A DNA stretch of 64,000 bases from an uncultured Verrucomicrobiae bacterium (GTDB taxonomy: Bacteria; Verrucomicrobiota; Verrucomicrobiia; Chthoniobacterales; JAFAMB01): positions 3,040,001 to 3,104,000 of the forward strand of contig CAWIPH010000002.1 of NCBI GenBank assembly GCA_963837955.1, written 5' to 3'. Made by a program: the position numbers. Numbering within the stretch: position 1 is the stretch's first letter; every line of letters starts with the position of its first letter. Of the stretch, positions 57,001 to 63,000 are shown piece by piece.

Positions 57001-60000
57001 ACGCCGTCAAAATATGCGCGGGCCCCGCGCAGATAGGTGTCATTGCGAGCTTTGATTTCGACGCGCCGATCATCCAAGAAGCTAAAACTGATTTCTGCCG
57101 GCGGCTGGCCTTCTAAGGGGTCGGGATCCCGATAACTGCCGCTTCTACCCTTCAAAATGATGCGCCCGCTTACGTCGCCAACATGGAGGGTCGGGCCGCG
57201 AACCACGTTCAAACTGAATTTGATGCCTTTGCTGTCTTTTTCCAAATCCAACTCCCCTCCATACTCGTCATTGTACACAGCGCTAATACCCGCGGGTAAA
57301 CTATCGTCGAGCAAGCTTCGGATAAACTTGATTCGGGACATGGTCAGGTCTCGAAGGCTCTCCAGCCGAGCGACCTCTTTTGGCCGAGACTCAGTGTTCT
57401 CGGCAATTTCGCCGCTGTGGTCGGCAAAATCGTCCCGATACTGGATCCAAGCTCCCTCACGCTTCTTCAGATCAGCAAAAGAGCCGGCCGTTAGCTTTTT
57501 CTTGGCTTGCCCATAGATCTCGTTCAGCCAGCTGTCTGCCTCGTCGTAACGCCGTTGCGCTCGTTGCTGCAGTTCTTCATTGGACAGCTTTCGATAAGTA
57601 CCGCTGAGGTCATAGCTTTTCTTTCGCTGGTCGGTCAGTCCAGACGCTTTCACTTCCAGTTGCTGACTGTCGAGATCGCCTTCAATCGCGATTTTGGTAT
57701 TGCTCTTCTGATCCGGCTGTTCTTCCATTCGATAAACGCTCCCATCCAACTTCAGCGTACCGCCGAAGTAAAAATCTTCGTCGGGCGACGCATCGGCATA
57801 ACGGGTAAAGCTAAAATCAGAGCTCGCGCCGGCGGAACCAGGCGGATCAATCGTGAGCTCCGTCTGAGAGTCGCGCGCAAAGGTAGCTGCCTCCAACTTA
57901 TCGACCAAACAAGTGGCGAGAAGCAGCGGCGTGAGGATGAAGGTGCAGACGGAGAACAATCTGAACAATGGGCTCAGTTTCCGGAGCCGGGCATGAAACA
58001 CAGGACTTAAACAAATAAGCACTGCGCCAGTATAGCGATCTGATCGACTGACCAAAAGCTCACATTCTCAGTCCTCGCCAGTGGATTTTAGCGGATCAGC
58101 TCTGAAGAATAGCCGCAAAAGAACGCAAAAGAACGCAGAGAGAATTTGACCTGTCACCCGTCGTTTACTCGCAGCCGTGGTCAATGTTCTCTGCGCCATC
58201 TTTTCGTCTTTCTTTGCGATCTCTGCGTTCTTTTGCGGCTATTCATTCGCGATTCACAATTGCGGCCGCCGCAGATTCAGAATGGCAACTGCGGCTTATG
58301 TCAAAAGCACCTAATCTAGCGCCGCTTTCAAGGCGCAACGTTTGGAACACGTTTCCCGGGGTTTAAACCCCGGGCGGGAGGGCGCACGTCCTCGTGCGCC
58401 GCGGATCGCGAGGACGCGATCCCTCCCCCTTCCGGGGCAGAGAACCAGAAAATCGGCTATGTTGAGGCATTGGGCGGCGGAGGACCCGCCCGAGTTCCTA
58501 AAGACGCCCCACGCCGATACGCTATCGTCCTTGCGTTAATCTGTGCGCCTCACTTCACCGCCGCCCAGACCCGATGGACATCGTCGTGATCTTCCAGCGC
58601 CTGCAGGAATTCACCTACTTCCGCGCGTTGGGAATCGGAAAGCGACGGAAACTGTTTCGCCAGATAACCGGTCTCGCTCGTTACGACGGTCCAACCCTCC
58701 TTCGTTAAAGCTTGAGACACGGCGTGGGTGGATGGTCGATCGGTGATGAAACGGGCGCCGGTGACTCCTTCAGGTATGCTGTCGTTCTCCAGATGTGAAA
58801 GCGTTTCCAGTTCGTTGGCCCCGGCTTCAATCGCCGCGGCTTCCGCGTCGACGTTGGTCCCAGCGTGATAAGCCTCGACCAGTCCAACATGATCAAAGAG
58901 AAATTTATTGCTGCTAGGGGCTCCGAGCTGACCGGATTTGAAAAGTTTTCGAATCTCCGGCGCCGTACGGTTCTGGTTGTCGGTTAAGACGTCGACGATC
59001 ACTGGGACTTTATGCGGCGCGTAACCTTCGAAAACGATGGAATGGAGCACAAGTTTCTCATCACCGACTCCAGCCCCTTTCTTGATGGCCCGTTCGATCA
59101 CATCGCGGGTAACACTGGCTTTTCGCGCCTTTTCCATGACTGCCGCGAGGCGGGCATTTCCACCAGGATCAGGGCCGCCCGACTTGGCAGCCACCATGAT
59201 TTCTTTGACGAGTTTACCGACAGCCTGACCCTTTTTCAGGTGCGCAACTTCCCGTTTTGCTTGGAGCCATTGGCGTCCCATAGAATTGCGAAACTATCGC
59301 GGCGAAAAGCCCGGTTTCAACGCCAATCGAGCCTCCGTCACTTGCATATATCGATGAATGGCGATATATAAGACCTGTGATCGAGCTTCTCGGCATTGCT
59401 AAAGTGCTTGGCGATCCAACTCGCGTTCGCGTTGTAGCCGTCTTGCGGCACGGAGAGCTTTGCGTGTGCGAGCTCGTGGACGCTTTAGGCATTAGCCAGT
59501 CTTCGCTGTCCAGTCATTTACAAATTTGTCGTCAGGCAGGAGTGCTGACCACGCGAAAGGAAAGTCGTTGGATTTACTACTCGCTCTCGACCCGCTACTC
59601 ACAGCTGATTAAGTGCATCTTCACCGAGTTACAGCTTGGCAGCGACGAACAATTACGCCGAGACGCAAAGCGGCTCAAAAAGAGGCTGCAGCTGCGGGAA
59701 GGAGGCCGATGCGTCGTAGGATTCGGTCAACCGGAACTGGCAGATGTCCTCGACTAAGATAGTTGTGCCAGAGCGTGCGGCTCCCGCTCTCCATGAAATC
59801 GAGCGGGGAATGCTGCTTCCTAAGTGTCGCAAGTGCGGTTGCATGAAGGAAGCCTTGGACGCCGCCAGGCGCACCTTTCGGAACGCAGAGGAACCGGAAA
59901 TCCGCGGTCTTCTTCCAACGATCGAAGGGCATGAGACCGCGATGGAGCCGATCGCTTATGATTGCATTGGCTGCAAAAAGTGTTGGGGTGCTGATGCAAT

Positions 60001-63000
60001 TATTCAGCTGGCCAATCGTTTTGAGCAAGTCGCACTGAGCGAATGTTCTAACGATGGCAGCGACGGTGGTACCAAGCGTGAGCACATATCCACTACCACC
60101 AATGGGCCGCATGAGTGTTCTTGGCCACCTCATCCAGGTGAGTACATCGTTGGCAATCCCGCAGGCTCAATTGCGATCTGCACCCTCTCTAATAGGGAGC
60201 TGCCACAGAAGCTTATTGCTGTGGCAGGACCCGACCTAGCTATTGCTGGCCGATGCGACACGGAAAACATAGGTATTGAGAAAGTGGTACTCAATGTGTT
60301 GGCAAACTCTCGGATTCGTTGGCTCATTCTTTGTGGAGTCGAGGCACCGGGACATCGGGCCGCAGATGCTTTCCTACGATTGAAGGAGCGAGGCGTTGAT
60401 CCGAACATGCGAGTCCTGGAATCGGCTTCGTGGCGACCGATACTGAAAAACTTGACTTTGTTCGACGTGGCCAGATTTCGGGAACAGATCGAACTGGTAA
60501 ATTTGATTGGAGTAACAGCTGTCAGCAAAATCATCGAAGCTGCCAGCGAAGTTGCCAAGAAGCCCGCCCCGACACTCAGTCTCCAGACACCGGACAGCTC
60601 CAATCAAATTGCATCTCGGGTTAAACGGTTAAAGGCTGCTGCCCCGAAAACCTTGCATCTCGACAAGGCCGGATTTTTTGTTCTTCTCCCCCAAGCTGCG
60701 ACCGGTGTGATTGTGTGTGAGCACTACGAGAATAGTGGCCGCCTGGCGCACGTGATCGAAGGATCTCAGGCCGCGCTAATCGCCGCGACGGTAATAGAGC
60801 GCGGACTGTTAACGCAGCTCGATCACGCAGCTTATCTCGGCCGTGAGTTGGCGAAAGCAGAAATTGCACTGAAGACTGGCTCGCATTACGAACAAGATGC
60901 AGCCTTGGGCCTCCTGCCTTCGAAAAACAGTCAGCGTACTGAACGGTGCGAGGATTTGGACTGTTCTTGCCAAGAACCATAGCCTCCACCCCACGCCATG
61001 AAGAAAGCAATCATCACACTGGTTACGACCGCAGCGAGCTTTCTGGCTCCCTGCGTTTATTCTCAACAAGCGAACGACTCAACGGCTGGAGTTGGTCGTC
61101 ATCCGACGACAGTTAATGATCTAGCGTCTGATCCATCCACTTATTTAGGGCAAGTTTCGGTAGTTGGCGTCGTGGCGGCCATTAATAGTGGTCAAGGCTT
61201 TACTATCGTTGATAAGCGTGAATATGCAGCTTGTGGTCTTTCTTGTTTTAGCGAACCTGATACTCGAAAGATCCCGGTACGTTGGAACGGAGCTCCTCCG
61301 AAACTTGAGCAAACGGTTCGTATAACCGGAGTCCTCGAAAAATCGGATCGCGGGCTGGTCTTTTCTGCCCAGAACGTCTCGGAGGCTGCTAAGGAGTGAA
61401 AAGCCAGCAACAAGAAAGCATTCCGCATCTCAACCGGCTATTGGGGACAGCAGCCTTCGTCGCGGTCTTCGTTGGTCACGTACTTTATCTACGCTACCTG
61501 ACGAGCCCTTCGCAAAAGGATTGGGCGGACAATTTCAATCCTTGGGCCAATTTCTGGCAAAGCTATCTGTTCAGCCAAGACTATTTCGTAAGTTTTTCTT
61601 ATGCGCTGAGTGCCAGCTTTGCTGTGTGGGCTACCGCACGTTTTTTGTACTTCCGCCGACAGGCAGCGGCCGTCGGAGCGCTTGGTGGGGTTAGCCTCGT
61701 CGCGTTGCTTCCGGCAGCAGGATGCTTTCTGGTCGGTTGCTGCGGCTCGCCGATGCTACCGATCTATATTAGTCTTTTCGGCTCGAAAGCTGCTGGAATA
61801 GGCAAGCCGCTCATGGCCTTACTAACTCTAGCCTCGATTGGCGTGGGTTACCTTTACCTCCGGAGACGATCAGCGTGCAACTGCACTAATCCGGCCGGTT
61901 AGTAGTGCATGTCTCACGGGACTCTGATTCAAACGGTGGGAGCAAATCACTCAGCTGCGCAGCATGTGCGATTCTCTCCCTGCATTGGTGGACACTTCAC
62001 CGAACCGTAGGAGCAGAAGACGCAGCAATCACCCGGTTTGGGGCGTAGTAGCGTCTTACAACTGTTGCATTCGTAGAAGAATTGGCACGCGTCAGTCGGC
62101 ATCGTTTCGCGTTTAGCGAAACCGCAGACCGGGCACACGAGCACGGATTCAAGAAGAACGTTGCTCATTACCGAATTCAGTTGTGCAGAGTGGAAGGATA
62201 ACCTGCATCGGAAGTCGCTTTGCTAAGTGCAGCCGGGCTGGCTTTCTCCGGGTCAAAGGTAACACTGGCAGTTTTTTGGTCGAAATCCACCCTGGCGGTG
62301 GTCACGCCCGGCACTTTCTCGAGTGCTTTCTTAACAGTGATCGGACAAACCGCGCAGGTCATATTGTGCACGTCCAGAGTAATGGTTTGTAAGGTTCCAG
62401 CGAATAGGCTGAAAGGGAGGGCGACGCCGGCGGCGCTCAGCAGGACGAAACGGTTCATAAGCAATTTCATAGCGAATAAAATAGAGGGGCGATCCAGGGT
62501 ACGGCGATCAGACCAAAAACTAGAACCGTAACGATCCAGAACGCTAAGCGCTGGCGTTTCAACGTGCGCGGATTGGCACAGGCCGATCCGGGTAGACAGA
62601 TTCGAGGTGCCAAATAGAGACTATAAAACGCGAAGGCAACAAACAGCAGCGTTAGTCCGATGAAAATTGGCCGATAAGGTTCGAGCGCAGTTAGAGAGCT
62701 GATCCAGGCCCCGCTTACCCCGAGCGTAAGCAAAACCAGCGGACCGAGGCAGCATAGTGATGCTCCAAGTGCCGCAAATATCCCAGCCACCAGGAAGGCG
62801 TAACCGCTTCGGGTAGCAGACTTCTTCAGTTCAGAAACTGATGGTTTCATTCAGCTTTGAGCAGGAGATTTTATCGCGCAGCAGTCTGGCGTAGCTGTTT
62901 TAGTTTTCGCTCCATCGTCGTCGTCGACTTGCGGGCGAATACCCTTTGCGAAGGCTTCCTGCAAGGCAACGACCCCCCTTTCGTCGAGACTCTCATGTGC

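Follow-up and report, generated by a model that had tools for sequence, protein, structure and literature searches.

HgcA is thought to transfer a methyl group from methyl-Co(III), and inward relays along Cys residues have, to our knowledge, a precedent for Hg(II) alone. In the corrinoid protein MtrA, cobalt is ligated by His84, to which Glu54 is hydrogen-bonded, and no role other than methyl carrier is known for this protein (PMC4915002). The four-gene operon described here resembles HgcAB in its layout, in which a corrinoid domain is combined with a membrane domain, a part rich in Cys and an ArsR regulator. It lies in the 64-kb stretch of soil-bacterium DNA analysed (the window) and belongs to a widespread, unstudied family that is often found next to heavy-metal pumps. 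Members are present in the genomes of at least 590 species of many phyla, and a literature search found no paper on this family. Many of its hosts come from anaerobic lineages, so that the aerobic soil bacteria named in the survey's finding are too narrow a description.

The four ORFs were all recovered where the survey had placed them, in one direction on the + strand, each start overlapping or lying near the preceding stop. The first gene, arsR (59377..59757), encodes a 126-aa ArsR/SmtB metalloregulator (HTH_5 in Pfam, E 5e-14; NF033788, 89.4 bits against a cut-off of 55) with an alpha-3 thiolate motif (ELCVCE) and Cys112. Among 34 ArsR sequences adjoining the corrinoid gene, Cys29 is conserved in 97%, Cys31 in 79% and Cys112 in 47%. 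A candidate ArsR operator, the 24-bp palindrome ATATATCG-N8-CGATATAT (59346..59369), ends 7 nt 5' of the arsR start codon; its two 8-nt arms are 100% complementary and separated by a spacer of 8 nt. The palindrome recurs, as TATATCG..CGATATA with perfect 7-nt arms, just 5' of arsR in eight of 12 related loci (L001, L002, L004, L005, L006, L008, L009 and L010), degenerate copies, judged by eye, occur in L003 and L007, and none was found upstream of arsR in L011 and L012. This palindrome is presumably the ArsR binding site, and its conservation agrees with the proposed control of the unit by ArsR, as does the position of ArsR as the commonest neighbour of the corrinoid gene (38 of 88 family loci have it no more than 4 kb away). 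The order of the four genes is likewise as reported: 11 of 16 closely related loci retain it, and a twelfth ends after the third gene.

The second gene (59744..60982), whose start is overlapped by the arsR stop (59757 versus 59744), encodes a 412-aa protein composed of a helical N-domain with six Cys (Cys6), an MtrA-type domain, DUF4346 and a Cys tail. NCBIfam model NF002128 aligns with residues 16-395 at 304.8 bits, under its cut-off of 568. The central part (60113..60586, + strand, residues 124-281) is predicted to be a Rossmann-like corrinoid-binding domain and matches Pfam MtrA (PF04208) over residues 126-274 (E 1e-35). The Foldseek match to cobalamin-bound MtrA (5laa) was reproduced (E 5.4e-13, TM of target 0.83, 36% identity), and an AlphaFold model built from 43 homologues, with a mean pLDDT of 88.5 against 70 in the earlier model, superposes on 5laa in VIA-align with Z 23.7 and an rmsd of 1.8 A over 153 residues. 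E174 and H204 sit where MtrA has Glu54 and His84, and a profile comparison with 5laa (E 3.8e-55) aligns the TEN (Glu54) and GH (His84) motifs. The His and Glu are kept in all 43 aligned homologues and in 63 of 63 Cys6-type representatives; C28, C31, C33, C74, C77, C80 and H204, previously listed as invariant, are likewise kept in 43 of 43. Because the equivalents of His84 and Glu54 are invariant, this protein is very probably a corrinoid protein; domain, fold and ligand pair all agree with the MtrA-type cobalamin protein of the survey, and it would bind cobalamin. The host uses B12 without making it, as a search of its genome found MetH and neither CbiC nor CobS.

The Cys6 domain (59780..60037, + strand, residues 13-98; C28-x2-C31-x-C33 and C74-x-G-C77-x2-C80) is a new domain. 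Its six Cys are kept in all 65 N-domains compared, and modelled alone it reaches a pLDDT of 94.4. It is likely to bind a metal, either in an Fe-S cluster or in some other form. The more specific label "Fe-S-like" was not borne out, since the likeness of the second Cys motif to 4Fe-4S ferredoxin motifs stays below threshold and the fold gave no convincing match among solved structures (best Z 6.2; best Foldseek E 1.8). DUF4346 (PF14251; 60659..60898, + strand, residues 306-385, E 4e-21) has three strands and two helices, with D307, G310, E326, H361, Y364, G366, E368, A372 and Q384 invariant; the term "pterin-binding-type" comes from the Pfam family name alone. Elsewhere DUF4346 is found on dihydropteroate-synthase-like (TIGR00284) and thymidylate-synthase proteins. 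The C-terminal tail (60947..60970, + strand) reads C402-x4-C407-x-C409. Such tails go with a membrane partner: of the 37 homologues that have a membrane partner close by, 21 carry at least two Cys in the tail, versus 13 of 46 without (88 loci, five unscorable ones left out).

The third gene, g35 (60998..61399, + strand), encodes a 133-aa secreted protein with a hydrophobic N-terminus and a Cys pair (CGLSC) that is present, as claimed, in all 20 domains found (20 of 88 loci), at a spacing of 3-4 residues. It has no match in Pfam or NCBIfam; an OB fold is possible, the OB-fold clusters scoring 0.89, which is a lead only. The fourth gene, g36 (61396..61902, + strand), with relatives in 28 of 88 loci, encodes a 168-aa membrane protein with about four TM segments read from hydrophobic stretches, an invariant H28, a helix with C110-FLxG-C115-C116-GSP and a cytoplasmic CxC tail. 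The motif CFLxGCCGSPML is indeed invariant in nine of nine sequences of its family, which bear Cys-rich cytoplasmic tails. The protein belongs to no Pfam family; as a candidate MerT relative it gave an hhalign E of 0.014 (probability 3%).

Natural fusions in other lineages join these proteins. The corrinoid protein carries g36 at its N-terminus in P0132, P0139, P0143 and P0155 and at its C-terminus in P0153, a g35 domain behind a TM helix in P0171, P0156 and P0134, and ArsR ahead of it in one representative, P0168, which may be a frameshift artefact, since the arsR stop overlaps the next start. The fusions indicate that the four products are functionally linked and act together. In addition, P0164 and P0180 carry periplasmic extensions that look thioredoxin-like by eye, and in one relative an ICMT/PEMT methyltransferase is joined to the corrinoid protein. 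At 10 of the 88 loci g36 is replaced, directly 3' of the corrinoid gene, by a DsbD_TM/CcdA-type protein that has Cys at both transmembrane positions and an extra vicinal Cys (NPCC); a thioredoxin-like protein with a membrane anchor often comes before it. None of the periplasmic partners has the CxxC of thiol oxidoreductases, the thioredoxin-like ones having a single Cys or CxC and g35 CxxxC or CxxxxC. No membrane partner was seen in about 50 of the 88 loci.

The setting of the family is thiophilic-metal resistance, as the survey had it. After ArsR, the commonest neighbours are metal exporters, namely P1B ATPases in 15 of 88 loci (11 of 12 scanned being of the Zn/Cd/Pb type), CusA/CzcA-type RND pumps in 12 and CDF exporters in about 10. 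ArsM-like or MduS-like SAM methyltransferases adjoin nine loci, and in L004 and L009 the cassette is bordered by genes for a Tn3 transposase or resolvase. In the window, the expected merR-X-merT-merP cluster lies outside the operon on the - strand (61947..63998), convergent and tail to tail at 44 bp. It comprises genes for a GDCCVxC protein (61947-62168), merP (62177-62470), merT (62467-62850), a secreted 269-aa Cys protein of unknown function (62851-63660) and merR (63657 to the window end). The cluster has no merA, no MerA was found genome-wide above the TIGR02053 cut-off (best 347.6 against 454.45 bits), and MerA is also absent from the four related Verrucomicrobiota genomes checked. Beyond the window, mer genes adjoin the cassette in two of 93 related loci, L006 (with merB) and L071, from a strain of Chryseobacterium aquaticum; the latter locus has a full merA operon, so the cassette there is not simply a MerA substitute.

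Given the linked proteins and the metal-resistance neighbours, we tentatively favour, at a confidence well short of even, a soft-metal stress module around a membrane-docked corrinoid protein. ArsR/SmtB would repress its own operon, and the cytoplasmic corrinoid protein, with its His-on MtrA-type domain, would dock on g36, the small membrane protein with the Cys-x4-Cys-Cys helix, which would face g35 in the periplasm. A mer-like relay from g35 through g36 to the Cys tail would bring a thiophilic ion inward (Hg(II) by precedent; possibly Cd, Pb or As(III)), and the corrinoid would act on it, most likely by methyl transfer from methyl-Co(III), less likely by two-electron reduction with Co(I), the Cys6 domain re-reducing the cobalt. 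Cobalamin binding, relay direction, substrate and chemistry are what we infer here from several patterns. The g36 helix (CxxxxCC-x2-P) shares CC-x2-P with the window's own MerT, although the two proteins are not detectably related; the Cys-rich tails of g36, the association of Cys tails on the corrinoid protein with a membrane partner, the missing CxxC and the mer genes without MerA point the same way. Methyl chemistry is suggested by the role of MtrA, by DUF4346 on pterin/folate enzymes, and by the ICMT/PEMT fusion and the ArsM-like or MduS-like neighbours. Methyl transfer to Hg or As in the manner of HgcAB is, by analogy, the most attractive reading and a possible one. Its layout parallel and corrinoid core stand, but the recurrent neighbours at the 88 loci include no methyl-donor methyltransferase of the MtrH, MeTr or Pterin_bind type, the host genome has no MtrH, and its only pterin-binding proteins other than MetH are two dihydropteroate synthases. 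A CdhD/HgcA family protein was again not found in this genome (95% complete). Hg or As is not singled out as the substrate by neighbours that mostly export Zn, Cd or Pb, nor by the mer genes, which are rare; importing Zn, Cd or Pb makes no obvious sense, and their methyl compounds are unstable in water. About half of the loci show no membrane partner, some of these, in Nitrospirae, having a housekeeping parAB context, and the CcdA/DsbD-type partners are known for electron transfer, not metal transport.

These partners open a less likely explanation, an outward thiol or electron relay from a cytoplasmic corrinoid/Cys6 reductant through the Cys membrane protein (g36 or CcdA/DsbD-type) to the periplasmic Cys protein, keeping envelope thiols or metal-binding sites reduced during metal stress. 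It recalls ferredoxin:thioredoxin reductase (FTR) or Hdr, with an Fe-S cluster beside a redox-active Cys pair, and the Scs and DsbD systems, which act in this way for copper; the thioredoxin-like neighbours and extensions would fit, and a single 4Fe-4S cluster would leave two of the six invariant Cys unused. Yet the lack of CxxC argues against it, as does the NPCC motif, unusual for a CcdA that transfers electrons but usual in mercury transporters, disulfide reduction gives no reason for a B12 cofactor, and the fold search matched neither FTR nor Hdr, though such a search cannot exclude one. Frequent operons of arsR, corrinoid gene and exporter (P1B ATPase, CDF or RND) without a membrane partner would rather suit a metal chaperone, buffer or co-sensor, in which the Cys6 domain and tail bind cytoplasmic soft metals and either pass them on to efflux pumps or signal the status of metal or B12 to ArsR, with a structural or regulatory role for the corrinoid as in CarH-/CoaR-type regulators. 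We consider this unlikely, despite the ArsR fusion and tails that look metal-binding: that fusion is a lone and possibly artefactual case, the ArsR proteins still have a CVC sensing site of their own, the strict cobalt-ligand pair and the many polar DUF4346 residues look catalytic, and recurrent membrane and periplasmic fusions are unexpected for a soluble buffer. It is most improbable that the module serves the salvage, protection or allocation of B12 or cobalt under interference of soft metals with B12-dependent enzymes such as MetH. The host has to import its B12, L014 has a TonB-dependent receptor upstream and Czc-type pumps also handle cobalt, but btu, cob and cbi genes are not among the recurrent neighbours at the 88 loci, we know of no B12 or cobalt importer with Cys-lined membrane helices, and the ArsR site is all-thiolate, whereas the family's Co/Ni sensors bind their metal through N/O ligands. 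Finally, members that stand alone or in non-metal contexts (the Nitrospirae parAB loci, tandem copies in Firmicutes) would fit a corrinoid/Fe-S enzyme with an organic substrate (a halomethane, methyl-thiol or methylated compound), its place in metal islands being incidental or regulatory; proteins that combine a corrinoid with Fe-S clusters, among them reductive dehalogenases and QueG, catalyse reductions. CCl4 dechlorination by HgcAB is reported in a 2026 preprint. This explanation is nonetheless quite doubtful, as a thiolate-site ArsR and then metal exporters are the commonest neighbours, and partners and tails so rich in Cys suggest that the ligand is thiophilic.

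The four ORFs of the operon run in the same direction, and each start overlaps or lies near the preceding stop: arsR (59377-59757), the gene coding for the 412-aa corrinoid protein with its MtrA and PterinBD-DUF4346 domains (59744-60982), g35, coding for a 133-aa protein with a hydrophobic N-terminus (60998-61399), and g36, coding for a hydrophobic protein of 168 aa (61396-61902). Neither g35 nor g36 has a match in Pfam or NCBIfam. The survey's finding of these ORFs, their domains, their gene order and the likeness to cobalamin-bound MtrA (5laa) is confirmed here and extended; 11 of 16 close loci share the order ArsR, corrinoid fusion, g35, g36, and a twelfth ends after g35. 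Together the genes form a real metal-stress module, widespread but uncharacterised, around a membrane-docked corrinoid protein. The arsR product scores above the cut-offs of both HTH_5 (52.3 bits versus 22) and NF033788 (89.4 versus 55), which places it in the ArsR/SmtB metalloregulator family, and the ELCVCE thiolate motif of helix alpha-3 is conserved in 79-97% of the 34 ArsR neighbours of the corrinoid gene. A 24-bp palindrome located 7 nt upstream of arsR (59346-59369) is, judged on sequence, a good operator candidate, and 8 of 12 related loci also have it, with 7-nt arms that match perfectly; a promoter and terminator scan returned a number of sites not above that of shuffled sequence.

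On the opposite strand, 44 bases past g36, lies a mer cluster (61947-63998, minus strand) made up of merR, the gene of a 269-aa secreted Cys protein, merT, merP and a GDCCVxC-domain gene. It contains no merA, and no MerA above cut-off was identified in the 95%-complete host genome or in four related Verrucomicrobiota genomes, which is suggestive of a mercury link for the window. Mercury importer genes carried without a reductase are odd in themselves. The 269-aa protein encoded between merR and merT (62851-63660, minus strand) matches no family in Pfam or NCBIfam. Its N-terminus is hydrophobic, its sequence includes the motif CEAAPAIGCG and ends with a CC, and it may represent a new periplasmic mer component. 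Among the 93 related loci, mer genes adjoin the cassette in only two others, L006 (with merB) and L071 (Chryseobacterium; merTP, merP and a merA scoring above cut-off), versus many more neighbours of Zn/Cd/Pb type. Since L071 has the cassette beside a complete merA operon, replacement of MerA by the cassette was rejected as a general rule.

The MtrA domain of the 412-aa protein (residues 126-274) matches Pfam PF04208 with an E-value of 1e-35 (123.4 bits versus a gathering cut-off of 25) and is the single match to this family in the host genome; the PterinBD-DUF4346 domain (PF14251) covers residues 306-385 (E 4e-21). In an alignment of 43 three-domain homologues (30-83% identity), the invariant positions are C28, C31, C33, C74, G76, C77 and C80 in the N-terminal domain, T173, E174, N175, G203, H204 and others in the MtrA domain, and D307, G310, E326, H361, Y364, G366, E368, A372 and Q384 in DUF4346. 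The profile of this alignment matches 5laa with an E-value of 3.8e-55, the TEN and GH motifs being aligned. H204 and E174, invariant in 43/43, correspond to MtrA His84 and Glu54, which PMC4915002 describes as the cobalt ligand and its hydrogen-bond partner; on bacterial MtrA homologues the paper notes no more than their existence. An AlphaFold model based on the 43 homologues has a mean pLDDT of 88.5, and its middle domain matches 5laa in Foldseek (E 5.4e-13, TM of target 0.83) as does the model in VIA (Z 23.7, rmsd 1.8 A, 153 residues aligned); the MtrA domain took up the match lists of these whole-model searches. Across 150 representatives of the wider family, the His and the Glu are both kept in all 63 that harbor the six Cys and both lost in 21 of the 78 lacking the Cys domain. 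The host genome codes for MetH and lacks CbiC and CobS, indicating that the bacterium uses imported B12. The conserved ligands, the MtrA fold and the use of B12 by the host together make it very likely that the 412-aa protein binds a corrinoid.

The six-Cys N-terminal domain (Cys6), folded alone on 65 sequences, gave a confident helical model (pLDDT 94.4). Fold searches with it returned no convincing solved relative, the best results being generic helical matches in VIA (Z 6.2) and CopM in Foldseek (E 1.8). Its second motif, C-x-G-C-x2-C, bears a weak likeness to 4Fe-4S ferredoxin motifs, with matches to the PsaC and NuoI motifs at E 0.1-1. No Fer4 family reaches threshold against the 65 domains; below threshold, Fer4_2 matches 7 of them (best E 0.52) and Fer4_21 matches 4 (best E 0.009). 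Because the likeness to ferredoxin motifs is this weak, the Fe-S-like character earlier ascribed to the domain is retained as a lead.

That the four products belong together is most strongly evidenced by natural fusions among the cluster representatives. The g36 product is fused to the N-terminus of the corrinoid protein in P0132, P0139, P0143 and P0155 and to its C-terminus in P0153, while a g35-like domain follows the corrinoid protein behind a TM helix in P0171, P0156 and P0134. In P0168, an ArsR HTH is fused to the N-terminus, a lone case that could be a frameshift artefact. These fusions place both termini of g36 and its Cys tail in the cytoplasm and g35 in the periplasm. A Cys-rich tail is present on 21 of 37 corrinoid proteins with a membrane partner versus 13 of 46 without one. 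In g36, H28 and C110-FLxG-C115-C116-GSP are invariant (9/9 sequences for C115-C116) and the tails are Cys-rich; none of the nine family members matches any Pfam family even at E-values up to 10, which also speaks against a DsbD_TM protein. A CC-x2-P pattern is common to g36 and the MerT of the window (L-C-C-L-G-P), as a motif likeness only: homology to MerT is not detectable, as g36 has no PF02411 match and hhalign against this MerT gave E 0.014 and a probability of 3%. Likewise, g35 has no HMA match and is not a MerP-like HMA (PF00403) protein. In the protein atlas, g36 falls into unnamed clusters only, and g35 gives an OB-fold lead (0.89).

Scanning a single genome for each species with the family profile detected at least 590 relatives, of which the best 80 were kept, so that the sample leans towards the Cys6 subfamily. 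The hosts include Verrucomicrobiota, Acidobacteriota, Bacteroidota, Planctomycetota, Nitrospirae, Desulfobacterota-type lineages, Chloroflexi, Firmicutes and some archaea. Neighbors were counted within 4 kb in the 88 of 93 loci having a recognisable corrinoid gene, and 74 of these 88 genes code for both Cys motifs. ArsR is a neighbor in 38 loci, g36 relatives in 28 and g35 relatives in 20 (with a simple gene caller, which missed three further g35 genes). P1B ATPases are present in 15 loci, and for 11 of the 12 scanned the Cd/Zn/Pb model outscores the Cu model; none of the cobalt type (SPC, HEGxT) was seen, CPC, APC or CPS being read in 11 of 16 and the motif being unreadable in 5. RND pumps occur in 12 loci (CusA/CzcA being the best match for 6 of 7 scanned), CDF exporters in about 10, histidine kinases in 10, and SAM methyltransferases in 9, including one ArsM above cut-off and two MduS-like proteins. 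In 10 of the 88 loci, a DsbD_TM/CcdA-type protein is encoded where g36 would otherwise stand, directly 3' of the corrinoid gene, often preceded by a membrane-anchored thioredoxin-like protein with a single Cys or CxC and no CxxC. CcdA-type proteins of L026, L043, L044, L053, L055, L057, L064, L074, L097 and L098 have a vicinal NPCC in the first helix, where a single Cys is expected in CcdA, and the proteins replacing g36 also have further CC pairs. Tn3 transposase fragments and a resolvase flank the four-gene cassette in L004 and L009 (1400-5400 and 8400-10900), and in L006 (4473-5441) the cassette lies behind an integrase gene. One assembly has two copies on different contigs (L001 and L003). 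Contexts unrelated to metals were also found, namely loci in Nitrospirae that have a kinase gene on one side and parAB on the other, and loci in Firmicutes where copies occur in tandem.

Databases label the 412-aa protein a methanogenesis subunit, an impossible role in these bacteria. Its corrinoid domain is homologous to MtrA, a subunit of the methanogen N5-methyl-H4MPT:coenzyme M methyltransferase (5LAA, 5L8X; 36-37% identity), the cobalt-ligand His and Glu are conserved, and both proteins are attached to the membrane, as seen for the 412-aa protein through the natural fusions in its relatives. However, it has neither MtrB-H partners (the 95%-complete host genome has no MtrH, PF02007) nor a TM helix of its own, lacking a hydrophobic C-terminal helix; it harbors the additional Cys6, DUF4346 and Cys-tail parts, it is controlled by ArsR, its context is one of metal resistance, and its bacterial hosts lack methanogenesis. 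It scores 116.5 bits against the MtrA equivalog TIGR01111 (cut-off 249.15), and residues 16-395 align to profile positions 17-378 of NCBIfam NF002128, a 390-aa 'MtrA' equivalog, with 304.8 bits (cut-off 568). By these profile scores it is a different equivalog of related architecture, the three-domain layout thus being known to annotators only under a misleading name. On all these grounds, the name 'tetrahydromethanopterin S-methyltransferase subunit A' is almost certainly wrong as a function.

For the mercury-methylating system, bioRxiv 10.1101/2022.10.17.512643 describes HgcA as a corrinoid domain on a membrane domain encoded behind ArsR. The two systems share a cytoplasmic corrinoid domain linked to a membrane domain, a co-oriented upstream ArsR-type regulator, and a Cys-rich part with terminal cysteines, which in the operon may be an Fe-S part. 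The corrinoid folds are unrelated, being of the MtrA type here and of the CFeSP/CdhD type in HgcA; no match to the CdhD family (PF03599) exists in the host genome. The lower cobalt ligand is a Cys in HgcA, whereas it is a His in the 412-aa protein. Unlike HgcB, no 2[4Fe-4S] ferredoxin is encoded in the operon, the Cys tail being carried by the 412-aa protein itself; moreover, the membrane partner is Cys-lined and a periplasmic partner is added. Mercury methylation is the activity of HgcAB, whereas the operon is known here from its genes alone. [quoted passage not shown]

The likeness to MerP-MerT(-MerA) is one of design: a periplasmic protein bearing a Cys pair, a small membrane protein that has a vicinal Cys pair followed by Pro in one helix and a Cys motif on its cytoplasmic side, and an enzyme in the cytoplasm whose own Cys motif is C-terminal, with mer genes beside the units of the window, L006 and L071. 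No homology is detectable, however, and a corrinoid protein replaces the flavin disulfide reductase and an ArsR-type regulator is used. The three tiers of periplasmic Cys pair, Cys-lined membrane helix with cytoplasmic Cys tail, and Cys-tailed cytoplasmic enzyme would follow the logic of the Mer relay, in which import of a toxic ion would be sensible only if the cytoplasmic enzyme then transforms it. To our knowledge, the sole characterised relative of the corrinoid protein is a methyl-group carrier. [quoted passage not shown] The interpretation in the survey's finding is partly supported; its HgcAB-type methyl transfer to Hg or As has the parallel in layout and the methyl-carrier relative, and against it stand the rarity of mer neighbors and the lack of a methyl-donor enzyme, both nearby and in the host genome. 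The two free Pterin_bind proteins of the host (L105, 2712-3602, and L104, 2763-3620) both score above the TIGR01496 cut-off as dihydropteroate synthases, and a dedicated methyl-THF:corrinoid methyltransferase among them was rejected.

Methyl transfer is further weakened because the metals handled by the neighboring exporters form unstable methyl compounds, and because CcdA-type partners can stand in for g36. This substitution favors an outward electron or thiol relay, reminiscent of CcdA/DsbD systems such as Scs copper tolerance, which would share induction in a metal context and, in the 10 related loci, share the DsbD_TM-family and thioredoxin-like partners. Yet CxxC is missing from every periplasmic partner, g36 and an OB-like protein take the place of such partners in the window, and the cytoplasmic partner is a corrinoid protein rather than a thioredoxin; the pairing of DsbD_TM with a CxxC thioredoxin-like acceptor was found neither in the window nor in the 10 DsbD_TM loci. 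The module may also be a metal chaperone or sensor, may handle cobalt or B12, or may act on an organic substrate; according to a 2026 preprint, HgcAB dehalogenates halomethanes, an example of the uncertainty over the native functions of such proteins. Returning to methyl transfer and Co(I) reduction, we regard as improbable the full scenario of a second, hgcAB-independent and oxygen-tolerant organometal route, in which an ArsR-switched, mer-like Cys relay would import Hg(II) or another soft metal(loid) for a membrane-docked MtrA-type corrinoid protein to methylate it or reduce it by Co(I), spread by transposons in soil Verrucomicrobiota, Acidobacteriota and Bacteroidota and in many anaerobes.

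At least 590 species-level genomes contain the family, frequently within heavy-metal islands that are mobile, and no study of it was found. Literature searches covering sources other than subscription journals returned no papers on DUF4346/PF14251 or GDCCVxC and none on metal-linked bacterial MtrA homologues (cobalamin/ArsR), PMC11291895 dealing with Asgard MtrA/MtrH only. If the corrinoid acts on the metal, the module would be a biochemically new response to metal stress. We know of no carriers other than those of hgcAB or ArsM to which methylation in oxic soils is currently ascribed; an organometal route could be an overlooked source of methylated mercury, arsenic and other metals in such soils, missed by present hgcAB-based surveys of methylmercury potential. 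A thiol relay powered by it would instead make it the first envelope redox system to depend on B12. Either reading is directly testable, since three named strains are among the related loci: Chryseobacterium aquaticum UMB34, Sedimentibacter saalensis DSM 13558 and Paenibacillus naphthalenovorans PR-N1.

Relatives in the wider family show further arrangements. An ICMT/PEMT-type membrane methyltransferase is fused N-terminally to MtrA and DUF4346 in P0182, a second, independent tie of this module to membranes and methyl transfer. In P0237, P0266 and P0248 the two domains, without the Cys domain, are fused to thymidylate synthase or dCTP deaminase, with the His and Glu kept. Two subfamilies of two-domain relatives (P0189, P0201, P0206, P0225, P0227, P0234 and P0261; P0248, P0250, P0253 and P0262) have C-terminal peptides that are conserved within each, ...GL(S/G/H)R(I/A/V)F and ...(Y/D)(G/S/D)W(Y/F)D respectively, which look like docking or sorting tags. 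Finally, P0209, P0210 and P0228, where Phe stands in place of the cobalt-ligand His and Ala in place of the Glu and where a C-terminal extension of about 130 aa looks beta-rich, may represent a B12-free branch of the family.
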